Below, piece after piece: positions 47,750-55,482 of a DNA stretch of 64,000 bases. The DNA comes from an uncultured bacterium. GTDB lineage: Bacteria; Bacillota_I; Bacilli_A; RFN20; CAG-826. The position numbers and the translations under genes were made by a program. Numbering within the stretch: position 1 is the first letter of the stretch; the number at the start of each line of letters is the position of its first letter. The notes under the pieces were generated by a model. The model made no database searches and was not told where the DNA came from. It saw nothing but the letters and a program-made list of their open reading frames with translations. The stretch is taken from NCBI GenBank assembly GCA_949299165.1, contig CASFZJ010000002.1, positions 4,924 through 68,923 on the forward strand. The letters run 5' to 3'.

Positions 47750-48226
47750 TTAATGTCCATAATATCTTTTAACAACTTCGATAAGTTCTTTATCTGTAAT
47801 TTTTTTCGTAATAGTTTTATTAGATTTTTTCAAAATCGAAAACATTTTAATATTGTTTTTTTCAAAAATTTCAAATTCTAAATAAAAATCACCAATTTTT
47901 TCATATTCTAATTGAATGCTATTTCTCGCCGTAGGAAAAATATCTGGCTGTGAATCTAATTTATCAATAATTGTTCTTGCATATTCAACTAATTCTTTTG
48001 AAAATCGTTTGGCTCCATATTGATTCCAATTATCACTTAAACTAGCAATCCTATTTAGCGTTTCATAACTTTGAATCTTACATAAATCAATATTTCTTGT
48101 ATCAAAATTTTGTTTTGGACTATTATCGGTGCCAACAGAATTAGGAATAATATCAATATTATTAAATGAATAAGAAAAGTTGCGATTATTTTTTGAATAA
48201 TCTGATGCTGATAGAATTAGATTCAT
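47750..48226 (-). CDS. Cassette gene B1 (unknown function; paralog of 54648-55130)
   Basis: 158 aa. Shares a conserved block with B2 (NWNQYGAKRFSKELVEYARTIIDKLDSQPDIFPTARNSIQLEYEK...LEFEIFEKN versus NRNGYGAHSFDKKTIQRFLSIINFLEIQPKISPTGRKTLVLAYEK...LSFEIFENK). Its start overlaps the A1 stop (ATGA). Confidence 0.5.
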   Translation of the reverse strand: MNLILSASDYSKNNRNFSYSFNNIDIIPNSVGTDNSPKQNFDTRNIDLCKIQSYETLNRIASLSDNWNQYGAKRFSKELVEYARTIIDKLDSQPDIFPTARNSIQLEYEKIGDFYLEFEIFEKNNIKMFSILKKSNKTITKKITDKELIEVVKRYYGH

Positions 48227-48645
48227 ATCCTTTTTCCTCCTTCAACTGTTATTAATCTTTCGCCAAGTAATTCATCATTAAGATAAATCTTGGTTGAATA
48301 TAAACCACTTTCTTTAAAAAGAATATTTTTAAACTCAAATCTTAAGTTTATGCTAGTTAAGTTTTTATCGTTAATTTCTTCTTTTTTAACTTTAGGAATA
48401 GTAATTTCGCCAGAATTAAATAAAATTTCTTTTGTCCCGAAATCTTGTTGAAAAACAAGTTTTATTTTGTTTTCTTTTTCATTATCAACACCTAAAAGCG
48501 AAAATACGACTGAAAAAGTAATGGCTCCAGGTAAACAATCTGATTTTAAAGCGCACAAAACATTCAATGCATTAATTGCATTAAGGTCACTAGATATTTG
48601 GCTATCTGCACAATAAACAAAGTTTGTTAAAGTTACCATAATCAC
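48223..48645 (-). CDS. Cassette gene A1 (unknown function; paralog of 54218-54664)
   Basis: 140 aa. Shares TLTNFVYCADSQ / TVTNFIFCENSK and NILFKESGLYSTKIYLNDELLGERLI / NILFKKEGECIAKIFFDDELIGEKHI blocks with A2. Confidence 0.5.
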   Translation of the reverse strand: MIMVTLTNFVYCADSQISSDLNAINALNVLCALKSDCLPGAITFSVVFSLLGVDNEKENKIKLVFQQDFGTKEILFNSGEITIPKVKKEEINDKNLTSINLRFEFKNILFKESGLYSTKIYLNDELLGERLITVEGGKRI

Positions 48646-48820: not shown

Positions 48821-49057
48821 AGCTGGTTATTTTTGTTATTTTGCTATGTGTATACATACACTTCTTCCGTTTTGTCTCATATAGCTATCATTAATGAGTA
48901 GAAGCAATATTTCGGTGTAGCAGACCTACTTTCCTTAAAATTTAAACTTTAAGTTAAGTCATTTGAAAATACCTCCTCACTTATTACAAAGGAGATTAAA
49001 ATCAAAAACGTTAAAAATATTTTTCAAAAATTAAATTTTCTTCAAATTTCTATGAAA

Positions 49058-49225
49058 TGAAAAACCTAACTTTTTGCAAATTTCTTTATTTTATAAACAT
49101 AGAATTTTGCAAATTTTGCTATTTTGAAAACCTAGAATTTTGCAAATTTTGGTGTTTTAGAAACATAGAATTTTGTAAATTTTCATATTTTTAGAAACTA
49201 AGTTTTTACAAATTTCGAGATTATA
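49058..49225. repeat. Approximately 34-bp tandem repeat array (about 5 units) with a palindromic TTTGCAAA core in each unit (iteron-like)
   Basis: Units such as AAACATAGAATTTTGCAAATTTTGCTATTTTG repeated head-to-tail with progressive degeneration; non-coding, AT-rich. Confidence 0.6.
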
Positions 49226-49652
49226 AATATCATTTTTATGTAAACACTTATTAAATTTATTTTTTTTGCGGATAAGATTAATTAATCACAATTTTTTTAA
49301 ACTTTCTTTCGTTGTATAAAGTAAATCAAACTTTTTAATAAAATATGATCTAGTATAAACGAATTTAAGAATTCAGTAGCAAAAATATAAAGAAATTTTC
49401 TAAAAGAGTTTATCAGTTAATATATGCTTCTTCGTGTGTCAAGAATACAACTAATTTAATTAATATTTTTTTATTTCTAGACTCAGCGTATTGAAGCTTC
49501 AAAAAATATTATTCAAAAAAATAGGAATTTTTTAAAATTAGCGACAAAATTTGAAAAATAATAAAATATGGTATTTCTGCGATGTTTTTTAACTTAAATA
49601 TTAGTTTTTTTATTAATTTTCAAAAAAATTAAATCTTAAATTTCCGGCACTT

Positions 49653-49720
49653 TGTCGCTTTCGTGTCGCTTTCGTGTCGTTTTCGTGTCGTTTTCGTGTC
49701 GCTTTCGTGTCGTTTTCGTT
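49653..49720. repeat. 11-bp tandem repeat array TCGTGTCG(C/T)TT, about 6 units, abutting a promoter -10 element
   Basis: TGTCGCTT then five full units TCGTGTCGCTT/TCGTGTCGTTT, then TCGTT, immediately followed by TGATATAAT. Confidence 0.75.
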
Positions 49721-49728
49721 GATATAAT
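49720..49728 (+). promoter_or_regulatory. Extended -10 promoter element (TGATATAAT) for the downstream Schlafen-like gene
   Basis: TGnTATAAT 33 nt upstream of ATG 49761, the same 9-mer as upstream of tRNA-Thr. Confidence 0.4.
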
Positions 49729-49751
49729 TTCTTTTTTATGCTAAATTAACT

Positions 49752-51080
49752 TTGTGTTTTATGGATTTATTTGAGTCAAACAGAATAGAATTTAAAGCAA
49801 AAATTACTGATCAACTTGTACGTGAGATAGTCGCGTTTTTGAACACTGATGGCGGAAAAATATATATAGGTATTAGCGATGATGGCAAAGTTATTGGTAC
49901 AAAAAATATTGATGAATCGCTTAGAATCATATCTGATATTGTTTGCTCTCAAATTGAACCATCTCCAATAGAATTAGTAAAAAGTGATATTCATTTTTTA
50001 GAGAACCAACCAGTTATTGTGGTTAATGTTGATAAAGGGACTGAATCAATTTATTGTATTAAAAAATATGGTTTTTCAAGTGTAGGCTGCCCAATAAGAG
50101 TTGGATCTACTTGCCGAGAAATGAGTCAAGAGCAAGTTCAATACAGATATAAAATGCGCTATTCTGATGATGATTTGTTAGTTTCATCACCGACAAACTT
50201 ACCTGAACTTTCGTTTGTTACTTTAAAAAATTATTATTCAAATATTGGCCTTAAATTAAATGACGAAAATTTCAAAAACAACCTCAATCTCCTGAACAAA
50301 AAAGGCCAATATAATAAATTAGCAGAATTAGTTTCGGATAATAGTCGCTATTCATTTATCTTTGTTAAGTTTGAAGGAGCAAATAAGGCTTCACTTTCAC
50401 AAAGAAGCAACTATGGAAACAAATCTATATTATTTGCTTATGAACAAATGAAAAATCGAATTGAAGCTGAAAACATCTGCATCTCTGATACAACCACAAG
50501 ACCAAGAATCGATAAATTTCTATATAACATCGAATCTGTTGATGAAGCCATTATCAATGCAATAGTCCACAATGATTGGAGTGTTGGAGAACCACAAGTT
50601 GCTTTTTTTAACAATAGAATTGAGATTATCTCTCATGGTGGTTTACCACATAATTTAACTAAGGAAGAATACTTTGCTGGAATTACAAAACCTAGAAATG
50701 CCGCTTTAATGAAAATATTTTCTGATTTAGATATCGCAGATAATACTGGACATGGCATTCCAACTATTATTGAACATTATGGTAAAGATGTTTTTGATAT
50801 TGAACCAAATCACATTATAATAAGCATTCCGTTTGATAAAGATATACTAGAAAGATTCAAAAGAGAGCATACCGATATAATCAATTTTGATTTGAATGAA
50901 CCAGAAAAGTTGATATTAGAACAACTTTCACTTGACCCAACAACTACTGCACAAAAAATCGCATTAAAACTCAAAAAAAGTCGAAGAACTATCGAGCGTT
51001 ATTTAAAATCCTTACAAGCAAAAGATTATATTGAACGAGTTGGAACCATACGAAATGGTTATTGGAAAATAATAAAGTAA
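49752..51080 (+). CDS. AlbA_2 (Schlafen-like) domain protein with C-terminal histidine-kinase-like ATPase and wHTH (paralog of 26727-28142)
   Basis: N-terminal AFLNTDGGKIYIGISDDGKVIGT AlbA_2 core; C-terminal block paralogous to the first copy. Likely ATG start at 49761. Confidence 0.65.
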   Translation: MCFMDLFESNRIEFKAKITDQLVREIVAFLNTDGGKIYIGISDDGKVIGTKNIDESLRIISDIVCSQIEPSPIELVKSDIHFLENQPVIVVNVDKGTESIYCIKKYGFSSVGCPIRVGSTCREMSQEQVQYRYKMRYSDDDLLVSSPTNLPELSFVTLKNYYSNIGLKLNDENFKNNLNLLNKKGQYNKLAELVSDNSRYSFIFVKFEGANKASLSQRSNYGNKSILFAYEQMKNRIEAENICISDTTTRPRIDKFLYNIESVDEAIINAIVHNDWSVGEPQVAFFNNRIEIISHGGLPHNLTKEEYFAGITKPRNAALMKIFSDLDIADNTGHGIPTIIEHYGKDVFDIEPNHIIISIPFDKDILERFKREHTDIINFDLNEPEKLILEQLSLDPTTTAQKIALKLKKSRRTIERYLKSLQAKDYIERVGTIRNGYWKIIK

Positions 51081-51643
51081 CTAATTATTTAAAAACAAAT
51101 ATCTCTAATATTTAAAACCAATCCAAAATAAATATTAAGTGCCGGCACTTGTTCTTTTTACTTGTTCGCATTAGATTGGTCAAATTCTTCGACATTCTGA
51201 CGCTTCTATATTTTATTTCAGAAATTAGATCAGAGAATAAACAATAAATTCATTCAAAATGTAGCAAGCTATTTTTAAAACAAAATTAATTTGAACAGTT
51301 TAACCGTTTTATATTGCTTTTATCTTTTTGCGATTATAGTCTTTTTTTAACTTCAATTACTTCATCAATTGAAAATAAAATAAATAACTTCGTGCGAAGT
51401 TCGTGCGAACTAATCGTTCTCTTACCTCTTTTGTCATTATCATTTGAAAAATGATATAAAATCACTTGAATATTGAATAATAATAAGCAACAATACGCGA
51501 AAAAAATTGAGTTTTGCAGGGTTTTTACTTTAAATGTAACTAAAAACTTTTACGTCAATATATAAAATTACTTTAATAAAACTTTTCCTTTCTAGTTAAA
51601 ATACTAAGTGCCGGCACAACTTCTCCATCATTTTTCACATCAA

Positions 51644-52933
51644 CTATTTAGACTGGTCATCGTTATTCTTTTCTTCGCCAATCAATCTTACAAGGTCACT
51701 CCTTTTAAGTATTTTATTTTTAACTACTTCATCTGCGATTATACTTAGTACCTTTTTATATTTTCTAAGTCTTCTTTTTACAATGTGATAGGTTTTCATC
51801 ATGAATTTATTTACTCTTTTTGCGTAAGTCTTTTTCTCATATTCACTTATTGACTCACCACGATATCTTAAAGATTTAGGTGCGTGGAAATCGATTGCGT
51901 TTATGTTTACTCCGTTCAGTAAATTAAATGAAGAAGTGTAGGCTTTTTCTAAATCATTAGAACATCCTATATCGTGTTTTTTATAGAAAAGTTCTTCAGC
52001 GACTAATCCTGCAAGTGCTATTTGAATGTCTTCAATCTGATTTTCTCGATTATCCTCAAAAAGATCAGTTGAATAGGTATATCCTCTTTGCTCATAACAT
52101 CTAATTCTAAAAAACTTTTTGCTTCTAGAAAATTTATAAATATATAAGGCGTGTCCTGCTTCATGAAGTGCGATGACTCTAGGCACAACATAGTCTTCTT
52201 TACTTTCAACACATCCCGTATCTAAAAAAGTTAATTCATTAATAAAATCATCAAGTTCTGCCTCTTTACCCTTTTTAAAATAAACCATATTAAAAAGTGT
52301 TTTGATTTTGCTAATTGATGAGCCAGATAAATGTTGTCTTAATTCTTCAATTTCGTCGTCCACTCTTTCAATATTAAAACCTCTATCTTTTAATAAATGC
52401 TTGATGATCTCTTTTAATTCTTTATTATTAAAAACTTTAATTTCATATTTTCGATCAAAACGACCTTCTCTTACTAAAGAATCTGGTAAGTCGTAATAAA
52501 AATTGGCACTAGCGAGTGTTAAAACATTCCCTTCTTTTTTAAATCCATCAAGTTCAGTTTGTAAAACTCTTTCAAGTTTTGTATCGCGCTCTACAAGACG
52601 ATCTACCTCATCAATTATTATAATTGCGCCTTTTTCTTCTTTTTTAGCTTCTTTATAAGTCGAAACTAAAACTTCATCTAAATTTTCTTTATCTCCTTCG
52701 ATAACAAAAATTTTATAGTCAAAAGTTTTAGCGAATTCTCTCATGAGCAAAGTTTTCCCTTGCCCTGGATCGCCATAAAACAAAATTCCATGAGGTAAAA
52801 ATTCTCTTTTATCTTCTTCTAATTCATTATTTAAATACCATCCTAAAATCTCATATAACTCATCTTTAACGCCTTGATATCCATAAACTTTTGATAAAAA
52901 CTCATTTCTTGAATTCATAATTTTTAGCCTCAC
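51644..52933 (-). CDS. Soluble FtsH-like AAA+ ATPase with C-terminal M41-type zinc metalloprotease domain (no transmembrane region)
   Basis: Walker A GDPGQGKT, Walker B IIIIDEVD. HEAGHAL zinc motif and downstream GCSNDLEKAY matching the FtsH peptidase region (HEAGHA... / GASNDIERAT). 429 aa, lacking the FtsH N-terminal TM and periplasmic part. Confidence 0.65.
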   Translation of the reverse strand: MRLKIMNSRNEFLSKVYGYQGVKDELYEILGWYLNNELEEDKREFLPHGILFYGDPGQGKTLLMREFAKTFDYKIFVIEGDKENLDEVLVSTYKEAKKEEKGAIIIIDEVDRLVERDTKLERVLQTELDGFKKEGNVLTLASANFYYDLPDSLVREGRFDRKYEIKVFNNKELKEIIKHLLKDRGFNIERVDDEIEELRQHLSGSSISKIKTLFNMVYFKKGKEAELDDFINELTFLDTGCVESKEDYVVPRVIALHEAGHALYIYKFSRSKKFFRIRCYEQRGYTYSTDLFEDNRENQIEDIQIALAGLVAEELFYKKHDIGCSNDLEKAYTSSFNLLNGVNINAIDFHAPKSLRYRGESISEYEKKTYAKRVNKFMMKTYHIVKRRLRKYKKVLSIIADEVVKNKILKRSDLVRLIGEEKNNDDQSK

Positions 52934-53015
52934 TTTCTAAGTGAGTTCATTATAAAAAGAAAAATGTCCTAAAAAAGGGACATCAAATAATAAATTGATA
53001 AAGATAGCGCCAACA

Positions 53016-54020
53016 CTAACCTTTTAAATAATCTAACAAGATATTTTTAATTTTATCTTTTAAGAAAGATGGAGAAATTACTTTTACTACTTGAAGATAT
53101 TGTAAACACCAAAATAAAATTGCATTTTCATTACCTTTAATATAGGCAAAAATTTCATCATTTTCATTTACGATATAAGAGTTTTCATTAAACCAATCTT
53201 TAACAAATAAAACTGCGTGTTCGTTTTTGAGTTTAATTTTAGCTTCAATTATTTCTCCACCATAAAAATAAATATGGTTATTAATATATTCAGTGATTTC
53301 AAAATCTTTATATTTAGAATCTAGATCTTTTAATGCAGTGTAATATTTATCGCTTTCAATTATTTCAACATCCTTTAAATAATCAATTCGAAAAGTGTTA
53401 AGCGTTTTATAATCAGCTCGATAATTACATAAAAGATAGTATCGTCCTGAATTATTTACGAGGAAATAAGGCGAAACTTTATAAATAAATCCATTCAAGC
53501 GATAAACTTCTTTTCCATATTTATCATAATCAATTACTTTAAAAGCTACTCGCTTTTTGTTTTTAATCGCTTCAAGAAGAAGCGAAATAGTATACATTAT
53601 TTCATTATTTTTAGTTCTAGCAACTTCGCTAGTTTTATAGAGATATGAAGAGTTAAAATTAAAAAGTTCTTTTTCTTTATTTTGTGAAAATGTCGAAGAT
53701 ATCTTTTTAATTAAATTTTTAGCTTCTTTAGCGTTAATACTCCTACTAGAAAATATTGAATCAATTAAATAATTCGCTTCTGTTTCATCAAAAAGACGAG
53801 AAAATAAAGCAACTCCACCTTTTTCTTTCCTAACTAAGTCATAACCTAATTCTTCAAGTAAATTTAAAGAATAAGCGATAGATTTTCTTTCTAACTCAAC
53901 GCCATATAATTCATATATCTTATTAATAATATCTTGTTGAGTTAAAAAATGTTCTTCATCACTATATTTTTCTAAAACTTTAAGAACTAATAATATTGAT
54001 GCTTTTTTGTTTTCGATCAT
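53016..54020 (-). CDS. HTH-WYL-domain transcriptional regulator (BrxR/CapW-like)
   Basis: N-terminal wHTH region, central WYL-like block RYYLLCNYRADYKTLNTFRIDYLKDVEII, about 330 aa as in BrxR-type regulators. Confidence 0.6.
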   Translation of the reverse strand: MIENKKASILLVLKVLEKYSDEEHFLTQQDIINKIYELYGVELERKSIAYSLNLLEELGYDLVRKEKGGVALFSRLFDETEANYLIDSIFSSRSINAKEAKNLIKKISSTFSQNKEKELFNFNSSYLYKTSEVARTKNNEIMYTISLLLEAIKNKKRVAFKVIDYDKYGKEVYRLNGFIYKVSPYFLVNNSGRYYLLCNYRADYKTLNTFRIDYLKDVEIIESDKYYTALKDLDSKYKDFEITEYINNHIYFYGGEIIEAKIKLKNEHAVLFVKDWFNENSYIVNENDEIFAYIKGNENAILFWCLQYLQVVKVISPSFLKDKIKNILLDYLKG

Positions 54021-54217: not shown

Positions 54218-54664
54218 TTGAAAATATGGCCAAAAACAAATAAAATAATTACTAAGGAGACAAAGAAGATTATGGCAACTGTTACAAACTTTATTTTTTG
54301 TGAAAATTCTAAAATCGACGAAAACGGAAATACTTCTGTCGTTAATATTTTAAACTATTTTTCTTTATCAATATTGCCAACTCAATTTACTTTTGATCTC
54401 TATTTTACAGTAGCTAAATTTGAAACAGGCGATCACAAGATAAAATTTATTATGCTTGATAGTGACAATAATATCCTCGCAGAAACTCCTGACATAAATG
54501 TTAAATTATTAAAAACATCCGACACAATTGATGATGTAAATTTTGTTAATTTCACTTTAAATCTTCGAAATATTCTTTTTAAAAAAGAAGGTGAATGCAT
54601 CGCAAAAATATTTTTTGACGATGAACTAATAGGAGAAAAACATATTTATGCGAACAAGAAATGA
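54218..54664 (+). CDS. Cassette gene A2 (unknown function; paralog of 48223-48645)
   Basis: 148 aa; see A1. Overlaps the B2 start by 17 nt. Confidence 0.5.
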   Translation: MKIWPKTNKIITKETKKIMATVTNFIFCENSKIDENGNTSVVNILNYFSLSILPTQFTFDLYFTVAKFETGDHKIKFIMLDSDNNILAETPDINVKLLKTSDTIDDVNFVNFTLNLRNILFKKEGECIAKIFFDDELIGEKHIYANKK

Positions 54665-55130
54665 AATCTTAGCATTTACTCCTCTTTACACTTTAAGTGC
54701 TACTAGTACGACAAAAAATATTAAAAAAAGTAAGCCAAACTACAATTTTAATCAAGCAAAATTTAATGACTCAACTTTAAATTTAAACCGCTTTATTAAT
54801 ATCAAGGCAATTGAGTCGCTCGAAAGCTTAAAAGAAAATCGGAATGGTTATGGGGCGCACTCCTTTGATAAAAAGACTATTCAAAGATTTTTATCTATTA
54901 TTAATTTTTTAGAAATACAACCAAAAATTTCCCCTACCGGAAGAAAAACTTTAGTTTTGGCTTATGAAAAAGATAAAGATGAAAAACTATCATTTGAAAT
55001 TTTTGAAAACAAGATTGATTGCGCCTATTTAAATATGAAAGATTTTTCAAAATCTTATATCAAACAAGTTAACGAAAGTGATCTTAATCAAGAAATAAAT
55101 AAATTTTATGGAAAAAGTTTATCTATATAG
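54648..55130 (+). CDS. Cassette gene B2 (unknown function; paralog of 47750-48226)
   Basis: 160 aa; see B1. Overlaps the next gene by 23 nt. Confidence 0.5.
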   Translation: MRTRNEILAFTPLYTLSATSTTKNIKKSKPNYNFNQAKFNDSTLNLNRFINIKAIESLESLKENRNGYGAHSFDKKTIQRFLSIINFLEIQPKISPTGRKTLVLAYEKDKDEKLSFEIFENKIDCAYLNMKDFSKSYIKQVNESDLNQEINKFYGKSLSI

Positions 55131-55482
55131 ATCTATTAGTAAAGGTGGAATGGATTATTTTTTAAGCAACTCCAGTTGGGTTGGAGCTTTTTTAGATGAT
55201 AGCAAAGATGGTTGCTCTGTCGAATATCAAGGAAAACGAACTGATTTAGATATTTCTAAAGAATTCAGTATCAGATTCGGAAAAAATAAGGGATTCTATG
55301 GTGTTGCAAAATTGATCGAAAGTCAAATCACGTCTGCTACCAATTTTAATCTTGGTGTAAAAAGCGCACCTAGTAAGAATAATTCAAACCACGCATTAAT
55401 TTACGACTTGAACATTGGTCAAATTAACGTTTTACAAGCAAGTTTTCTTGCAACTATCTGCGAAGTTTATGGATTGATTTAA
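55108..55482 (+). CDS. Hypothetical protein C2 translationally coupled to cassette A2-B2 (no counterpart in the first cassette copy)
   Basis: 124-aa ORF overlapping B2; no motif recognised. Confidence 0.35.
   Translation: MEKVYLYRSISKGGMDYFLSNSSWVGAFLDDSKDGCSVEYQGKRTDLDISKEFSIRFGKNKGFYGVAKLIESQITSATNFNLGVKSAPSKNNSNHALIYDLNIGQINVLQASFLATICEVYGLI

Follow-up and report, generated by a model that had tools for sequence, protein, structure and literature searches.

A predicted soluble FtsH-like AAA+ zinc metalloprotease paired with a WYL regulator at a variable genomic site of gut Firmicutes

A 64-kb stretch of DNA from an uncultured bacterium (the window, meaning the whole stretch analysed) encodes a predicted soluble, FtsH-like AAA+ zinc metalloprotease directly behind a gene for a WYL regulator on the same strand. 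The link between the two genes is real, conserved, and reciprocal, and a soluble FtsH-like protease in a putatively WYL-controlled module is previously undescribed. We read the protease, with confidence that is about evenly balanced, as the WYL-gated output of the pair, most likely an effector that would cut restricted targets without threading them. More tentatively, the pair may form a previously unrecognised system of gut Firmicutes against phages and other mobile genetic elements, in which a regulator sensing single-stranded DNA (ssDNA) would control a non-threading protease, and nucleases or ATPases swapped into the same frame would dock under the same control. We infer the activity of the protease, its targets, the nature of the signal, and the outcome in defence by comparison, and the whole case rests on the comparative genomics of uncultured organisms.

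The protease gene and its parts are listed below; lengths are in nucleotides (nt) or amino acids (aa), and residue numbers follow the 429-aa open reading frame (ORF) unless stated.

51644..52918, minus strand: coding sequence of the protease, 424 aa from ATG 52918; the mechanical ORF extends to GTG 52933.
52928..52936, minus strand: ribosome-binding site AAAGTGAGG, 9 nt ahead of ATG 52918.
52436..52786, minus strand: AAA ATPase core, residues 50-166; Walker A G54-T61 at 52751-52774.
51686..52180, minus strand: Peptidase_M41 domain, residues 252-416; HEAGH at 52151-52165; third zinc ligand D327 at 51953-51955.
52679..52696, minus strand: remnant of pore loop 1, G80-L85 (GDKENL); the aromatic-hydrophobic-Gly segment of FtsH ('MFVGVGA') is absent.

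The ORF 51644..52933(-) is present with 429 aa, and the sequence upstream of it reads ...TATAATGAACTCACTTAGAAAGTGAGGCTAAAAATTATG. The GTG listed at 52933 falls within the ribosome-binding site, so ATG 52918 is probably the true start, giving 424 aa; close homologues start at the residue matching this ATG. An earlier note on this DNA had claimed an AAA module joined to an M41 peptidase domain, and the Pfam domain search agrees: AAA (PF00004) matches residues 50-166 (E-value 4.4e-20) and Peptidase_M41 (PF01434) residues 252-416 (E-value 6.3e-12). Both motifs quoted there, ...ALHEAGHALYIY... and ...GCSNDLEKAY..., are found in the translation. The soluble part of the FtsH structures 2ce7, 8vw9, and 2dhr aligns with residues 18-421. 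The AlphaFold2 (AF2) model of the protease (pLDDT 85.4, pTM 0.78) superposes on apo-FtsH 3kds with a TM-score of 0.79-0.80; 7tdo, YME1, and AFG3L2 also superpose.

That the protein is a cytosolic FtsH paralogue without transmembrane or periplasmic parts, as the same note had it, holds. The match to the NCBIfam FtsH profile (TIGR01241) begins at position 161/598, and the top Kyte-Doolittle 19-mer reaches 0.77, against 2.5-2.9 in true FtsH proteins. Hydropathy gives no transmembrane segment in the protease; the two N-terminal FtsH helices and the periplasmic/extracellular domain are absent, and FtsH_ext gave no match in the Pfam scan. The TIGR01241 score is 101.7 bits, far under the curated cut-off of 600. 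The fold and the catalytic sites of FtsH are present; its anchor, pore loops, and curated score are not. A role outside housekeeping proteolysis, also proposed in the note, is supported by this score, by the variable contexts of the orthologues, and by locus L038, where the flanks of the window are kept with other island content.

Family counts are from the best 150 matches of an exhaustive profile search covering 1.84 billion representatives; among these, at least 97 clusters (50% identity) are short family members of 380-500 aa, with scores of 290-570 bits. Thermus thermophilus FtsH scores ~141 bits on the narrower family profile, against 290-570 bits for family members. A word-indexed search returned ~50 clusters of 410-440 aa, all without transmembrane segments and unnamed, followed by a sharp drop to true FtsH and Cdc48. 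Long high scorers (700-2100 aa) were rejected as members: they are tandem or fused true FtsH proteins with FtsH_ext and AAA_lid_3, and their scores are high because they sum over several domains. Most of the family is from metagenome-assembled genomes (MAGs) of gut and rumen Bacilli/Mollicutes; where members have an organism name, it is that of uncultured Bacilli of gut or rumen, 'Mollicutes', Erysipelotrichaceae, Lachnospiraceae bins, or Candidatus Enteromonas. No family member turned up in the reference collections of phages and plasmids, where the only matches were true FtsH at ≤29% identity; PADLOC-DB v2.0.0 gave no full-length model match, its matches being to the AAA module alone (IetA, PDC-S01, TRIP13, mad8). 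The protease is a member of this discrete, previously unnamed soluble branch of FtsH-like proteases.

Conservation was read from an alignment of 28 family members, down to ~25% identity. Invariant are Walker A G57, G59, and K60; Walker B D108; sensor-1 N144; arginine fingers R155 and R158; the DG of the DGF inter-subunit motif; and the zinc site H257-E258-A259-x-H261 with its third ligand D327. Walker A G54-T61 and Walker B D108-E109 are invariant or nearly so, and HExxH is found in 97/97 short cluster representatives. This residue invariance, together with the HExxH count, argues that both active sites are under purifying selection.

The pore loops differ. Aligned to the family profile, T. 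thermophilus FtsH has two insertions: 'mfvgvga' (pore loop 1), and 'rgsgvgggn' with three further residues (pore loop 2). Measured in 135 parsed members of the soluble family and 43 FtsH/Yme1-like proteins, respectively, Walker A and Walker B stand 53-55 versus 59 apart; Walker B and xDG, 21 versus 32-33; and the aromatic-hydrophobic-Gly motif occurs in 3/135 versus 40/43. In the model of the protease, strand 2 and helix 2 are joined by a six-residue link alone (G80-L85). To judge from these alignments, both substrate-gripping pore loops are deleted across the family, a point absent from the earlier note. In FtsH and its mitochondrial relatives the pore loops touch and pull the substrate (PMC8943139; 10.1101/189316); with these loops missing, FtsH-type threading, and with it classical processive unfolding, is improbable for this protease.

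Loss of both pore loops across the family would also suit a decaying or non-proteolytic relic, that is, an ATP-driven switch, a scaffold, or a pseudo-enzyme heading to loss, with the M41 domain merely structural. A WYL-paired member in locus L037 (7095-8366) has SKAAQ in place of HEXXH and has lost the Walker B glutamate and the arginine fingers, yet it retains the WYL pairing, the gene position, and the upstream palindrome described below with one mismatch; it may have become a pseudo-enzyme or be decaying. Members of the distant P0048 clade, moreover, have DD for DE in Walker B. We hold the relic reading to be very unlikely for the family, in which every one of the 97 short representatives keeps HExxH and the 28 aligned members share the third zinc ligand, Walker A/B, sensor-1, and arginine fingers.

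The regulator gene and the putative promoter upstream of the protease are as follows.

53016..54020, minus strand: regulator with winged helix-turn-helix (wHTH), WYL, and WCX domains, 334 aa; conserved partner of the protease.
52965..52982, no strand assigned: palindrome TGTCC-N8-GGACA, putative WYL operator; with its T-run also a terminator-like hairpin after the WYL gene.
52949..52954, minus strand: -10-like TATAAT, 10 nt downstream of the palindrome.

The WYL gene lies 82 nt upstream of the protease on the same strand. Gene order was surveyed in 21 genome loci and 19 metagenome loci (cited by L number) and is constant in outline: the WYL regulator comes first and the FtsH-like gene last, with 0-2 variable genes separating them and every gene on the same strand. 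A same-strand upstream WYL gene is found in 13 distinct loci, and a divergent one in two (L002, L006), of 18 assessable. The arrangement is seen in the window and in L001, L003, L008, L011, L013, L014, L015/16, L017, L019, L024/25, L026/27, L028, and L029/30. In the reverse test, starting from five WYL homologues, an AAA(+M41) gene lies 0-2 genes downstream in 5/5. Pairwise distances of regulator and protease correlate (r = 0.84, Mantel p about 2e-4), and the regulator is the more conserved of the two (for example, 81% versus 55% identity to L001). The WYL neighbour proposed in the earlier note, and the co-occurrence that it suggested checking, were thus recovered in both directions.

The regulator matches Pfam WYL (PF13280) with E-value 1.5e-7 and the PADLOC WYL model with 1.3e-20; WCX (PF25583) is detected on its orthologues. 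In its AF2 model (pLDDT 76), a winged helix at the N-terminus is joined by a helical linker to a beta-rich WYL domain, and an alpha/beta domain forms the C-terminus; the model aligns full-length to DriD, PafBC, BrxR, and CapW. A PDB search with the single regulator sequence gave no match, and the profile match to DriD is marginal (E-value about 0.005-0.02). The note had called the neighbour BrxR/CapW-like; a full wHTH-WYL-WCX regulator is there, but by Foldseek its model is closer to DriD (6e-11) and PafBC (8e-11) than to BrxR (3e-6) and CapW (2e-5). WYL regulators sense ssDNA (PMC11662680, PMC8635444), and in the characterised cases CapW, DriD, and PafBC, ssDNA on the WYL domain raises target expression (PMC11662680, PMC12041258, PMC8635444). 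By analogy, the regulator would be switched by a nucleic-acid ligand at its WYL domain.

Between the WYL stop and the protease start, the minus strand at 52965-52982 reads TGTCCCTTTTTTAGGACA. An exact TGTCC-N6-9-GGACA has one copy in the 64-kb window, against 0.03 expected, and copies at ≤1 mismatch total 31 in 372 kb of loci. In nearly all loci the palindrome, with its 8-nt spacer, precedes the start codon by 38-82 nt; of 30 FtsH-like genes, 18 have a copy at ≤1 mismatch in the 130 nt before them, and 23 have one at ≤2 mismatches. A second palindrome lies directly upstream of the -10 box of the WYL operon in L011, L014, L026, L029, L031, and L034. No -35-like hexamer is present 16-18 nt from the TATAAT of the protease promoter, and an Rfam scan of 47-57 kb found no RNA element at E ≤ 0.1. 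A T-run comes after the palindrome in most loci, and a terminator scan calls it. In L017 and L029, however, the T-run is absent and the -10 spacing retained, and the WYL promoters likewise have no T-run, for which reasons we read the palindrome mainly as a DNA site.

The wHTH of PafBC reads the GTC triplet of a -26 element, tGTCgg-N10-tAnnnT, on promoters lacking a -35 (PMC8635444), and the DriD site is a pseudo-palindrome, ATACGAC-N7-GTCGTAT, with the same triplet in both orientations (PMC12041258). The half-site of the palindrome includes a GTC triplet, as these sites do. The WYL protein probably binds the palindrome, which would render the protease inducible by a nucleic-acid signal; the promoter geometry, with no -35 and a site beside the -10, fits activation as well as repression.

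The same likenesses would suit a DNA-damage or stress protease apart from phage defence, in which a DriD/PafBC-like activator induces a soluble quality-control protease, and the nearby nucleases serve repair or are unrelated. The regulator model is nearest to the DNA-damage activators DriD and PafBC and shares PF13280 and, in its orthologues, WCX with them; the promoter without -35, with its site beside the -10, resembles PafBC 'sigma adaptation' promoters (PMC8635444). This explanation is nevertheless unlikely in view of a patchy distribution, contexts that differ among loci, island content swapped between close relatives, typical conflict genes nearby (GmrSD, PDC-S26, PDC-S01, AbiH, Fic, HipA), a protease that evolves faster than its regulator (the 55% and 81% identity to L001 given above), and several copies in some loci (L013, L024, L015).

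The genes found between regulator and protease (the cargo) are GmrSD-type enzymes in L017 and L029; a PDDEXK_4 nuclease (PADLOC PDC-S26) in L013; and in L034 a 194-aa protein with an ABC-type ATPase bearing PtuA/MADS3-like motifs. The unassigned cargo proteins (447, 327, 372, 264+80, 173, and 194 aa) have no Pfam, PADLOC, or NCBIfam match. Neighbours across the loci include PDC-S01, AbiH, Fic, HipA, Macro, and MazG with an SLFN-g3 helicase; GmrSD/HEC-06 and AAA_15/21 PtuA-like ATPases are further defence-type labels among cargo and neighbours. In the window, L001, L019, L024, L038, and L039 there is no cargo, and the protease stands alone behind the palindrome. These cargo-free loci have nothing else behind the putative operator, which argues that the protease itself is the regulated output. 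In L038 the regulator is 90% identical to that of the window; both share DUF1836 and an epimerase gene on one side and polysaccharide genes on the other, and the accessory genes are different. The site is therefore a variable hotspot.

Cargo bears as well on a regulatory role, in which the protease would degrade the WYL regulator or a co-expressed cargo nuclease and so give feedback or reset. CapP cleaves CapH, ImmA cleaves ImmR, IrrE cleaves DdrO, and Lon degrades antitoxins. The pairing with the regulator is tight and co-evolving; the two genes bracket the cargo with the same palindrome at both promoters, so that the protease would rise with the cargo; and an enzyme without pore loops suits limited cleavage of one dedicated partner. 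We nonetheless find such a role somewhat unlikely: the six cargo-free loci would have no output unless the regulator has distant targets, the 64-kb window has a single palindrome, and known repressor-cleaving proteases are small M78/ImmA-type enzymes with no ATPase.

From gene context the earlier note had suggested a defence effector or a regulator-degrading protease, and both are candidate roles by context. The WYL-gated effector that we prefer would work as follows. The protease would be a soluble, probably ring-forming member of the FtsH family, transcribed from its own promoter (-10, no -35, palindrome 10 nt upstream), most likely under the adjacent WYL regulator; by analogy with the WYL class, it would be made only in response to ssDNA that arises in DNA damage or during phage attack. 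The two genes would be the invariant frame of a small mobile module, opened on the 5' side by the regulator and closed on the 3' side by the protease, with lineage-specific cargo slotted between them: a GmrSD type IV restriction enzyme, a PD-(D/E)XK nuclease, an ABC-type ATPase, or proteins of no assigned family. ATP is more likely to be used for assembly or gating than for threading, and the protease would cut a limited set of accessible or adaptor-presented phage or host proteins, stopping infection.

Several points weigh against this effector reading. WYL regulators such as DriD and PafBC govern DNA-damage responses, not defence. The window's own WYL promoter has no palindrome. The WYL gene is not nearby in L005, L007, L012, L022, and L023, mostly with a palindrome-like site present, and the palindrome binder could for that reason be another factor or be encoded elsewhere. 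The palindrome may double as an intrinsic terminator, its conservation being perhaps partly at the RNA level. Loss of the pore loops might mean that proteolysis is lost altogether, as the L037 copy without HEXXH and the Walker B and arginine motifs may suggest. All loci are from related gut Firmicutes MAGs, so that some of the synteny reflects common ancestry. In PADLOC-DB v2 the family has nothing beyond the weak, AAA-only match to IetA, and a search of one literature library found no paper linking an M41/FtsH-like protease to WYL regulators or to defence.

Other features near the pair in the window are the following.

49752..51080, plus strand: protein with SLFN_AlbA_2, HATPase_c_4, and wHTH domains, convergent with the protease; possible accessory.
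47750-48645, minus strand, and 54218-55482, plus strand: inverted cassettes of DUF6941 (phrog_5881) and a ~160-aa protein, paralogues ~32% identical.

The Schlafen-like gene is convergent with the protease, as the earlier note had stated; as an obligate partner it is unsupported, lying within 5 kb only in the close relatives (the window, L001, L019, and L038). The note had also placed the protease in a cassette-bracketed block. Two inverted DUF6941 cassettes do flank it, but they do not accompany the module: of the related loci, the near-identical L003 alone has them, and L038 has other genes in their place. For this, and for an identity of only ~32% between the copies and the lack of an inverted repeat at the DNA level, they were rejected as part of the system. 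The 158-aa protein of the left cassette has a weak match to the C-terminus of the PADLOC candidate PDC-M32A; the right cassette is followed by one more ORF, of 124 aa.

Upstream of the Schlafen-like gene, a 1.1-kb non-coding stretch holds two tandem arrays (49028-49225, 49642-49729), with units of 33 nt x ~6 and of 11 nt (TGTCGCTTTCG) x ~8, the latter ending 22 nt before the Schlafen start codon. Short direct repeats also precede the orthologues in L001, L019, and L038, a different one in each case, and the repeats may be the binding sites of that helix-turn-helix protein itself; the 11-nt TGTCG repeats were disfavoured as extra WYL sites, every Schlafen orthologue having a different repeat. 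The convergent gap between the Schlafen-like and protease genes (51081-51643) is 563 nt and non-coding, with no Rfam match and no ORF >46 aa. At its edges is a 19-nt direct repeat, AAATAYTAAGTGCCGGCAC (51130-51148 and 51599-51617), and 51313-51420 is homologous to the region upstream of the L038 Schlafen gene, including TTCGTGCGAAGTTCGTGCGAA. The sequence suggests that the gap is a rearrangement relic.

Further observations concern the other loci. Two or three FtsH-like paralogues are found in L013 (1508-4313, 7995-9236), L024 (1235-2464, 7001-8248), and L015 (4801-6219, 7697-9019); in L024 the second copy comes with a palindrome of its own, and MazG-like and SLFN-g3-helicase genes follow that copy. 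Immediately before the WYL operon, several loci, among them L031 (5565-5747) and L034 (5566-5748), have a gene for a 60-aa protein with three RD(S/E)HGHK(I/L)GE-like repeats; ahead of this gene is a degenerate palindrome, and behind it a 47-53-aa ORF overlaps the WYL start. The distant members without transmembrane segments in L022 and L023 (clades P0046, P0048), with no WYL gene nearby, neighbour pairs of MoxR-type AAA and DUF2201 genes, AddAB-like helicase-nucleases, and ADP-ribosylglycohydrolase or phage-like replication genes; ahead of a -10 box in L023 is a variant of the palindrome, TGTAC-N8-GTACA. Three loci, L009 (5609-6769), L010 (4845-6005), and L015 (6411-7571), have a class Ib (Trp/Tyr-type) aminoacyl-tRNA synthetase gene no more than 4 kb from an FtsH-like gene; L009 and L010 are near-identical, and the L015 synthetase gene has an FtsH-like copy on either side. 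The synthetase gene may belong to a housekeeping flank or encode a resistant paralogue.

Descriptions of FtsH present a membrane-anchored AAA+ protease, and the aromatic residue of its pore loop is taken to be central to the hand-over-hand threading model. The family of at least 97 clusters (50% identity) is a natural test of an AAA+ protease ring without substrate-gripping loops. For WYL regulators in Firmicutes, the module is a small, self-contained example in which sensor, putative operator, and output lie together; the operator sequence can be tested directly, and the promoter without -35 is relevant to the question of PafBC-type 'sigma adaptation' beyond actinobacteria. Should the pair prove protective against phage, the defence repertoire would gain a class of ATP-dependent metalloprotease effectors, and a regulator-effector frame would be seen to capture other defence genes.

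The known systems that come closest are compared last. With FtsH, Yme1, and AFG3L2 the protease shares the two-domain cytosolic architecture and the fold (TM-score 0.79 to 3kds); Walker A/B, sensor-1, the arginines of the second region of homology, the DGF motif, and the HEXXH + Asp zinc site. Unlike them it has no transmembrane helices, no periplasmic domain, and neither pore loop 1 nor pore loop 2, and unlike FtsH (TIGR01241) it lies behind a putative WYL-type operator, not at a housekeeping locus. The regulator has the three-part architecture of DriD and PafBC, which are its best structural matches, and its putative site is, like theirs, a GTC-containing (pseudo)palindrome, here beside a -10 in a promoter without a -35; sequence similarity is marginal, however, the palindrome spacer is 8 rather than 7, and the target is one adjacent protease gene plus cargo, not a regulon. 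BrxR and CapW, WYL repressors that head BREX, CBASS, and other defence systems, are alike in being WYL regulators 5' of variable island defence genes with a palindrome at the promoter, though the structural match of the regulator to them is weaker than to DriD/PafBC. We know of no described BrxR or CapW system with a conserved 3' AAA+/M41 protease. Such a protease is unmentioned in that context in PMC9122601 and PMC4012209.

IetAS is alike in combining a classical-clade AAA ATPase with protease activity in a defence context, and IetA is the best defence match of the protease (PADLOC E-value 8.9e-10, 36.5 bits; NCBIfam 3.2e-7, 29.8 bits against a cut-off of 510). The match is confined to the AAA module, however, and here an M41 zinc domain is fused to it in place of the separate, subtilisin-like serine protease IetS; neither IetS nor another serine-protease gene is among the neighbours in the window. 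Some IetA proteins bear an FtsH-like extracellular domain (10.1101/2023.08.12.553040), which the protease has not. CapH/CapP, ImmR/ImmA, and DdrO/IrrE pair a regulator with a zinc metalloprotease near defence or mobile-element genes, a possible functional analogy. CapP, ImmA, and IrrE are small M78/ImmA-type proteases without an ATPase, and their regulators are of the XRE type, not WYL.

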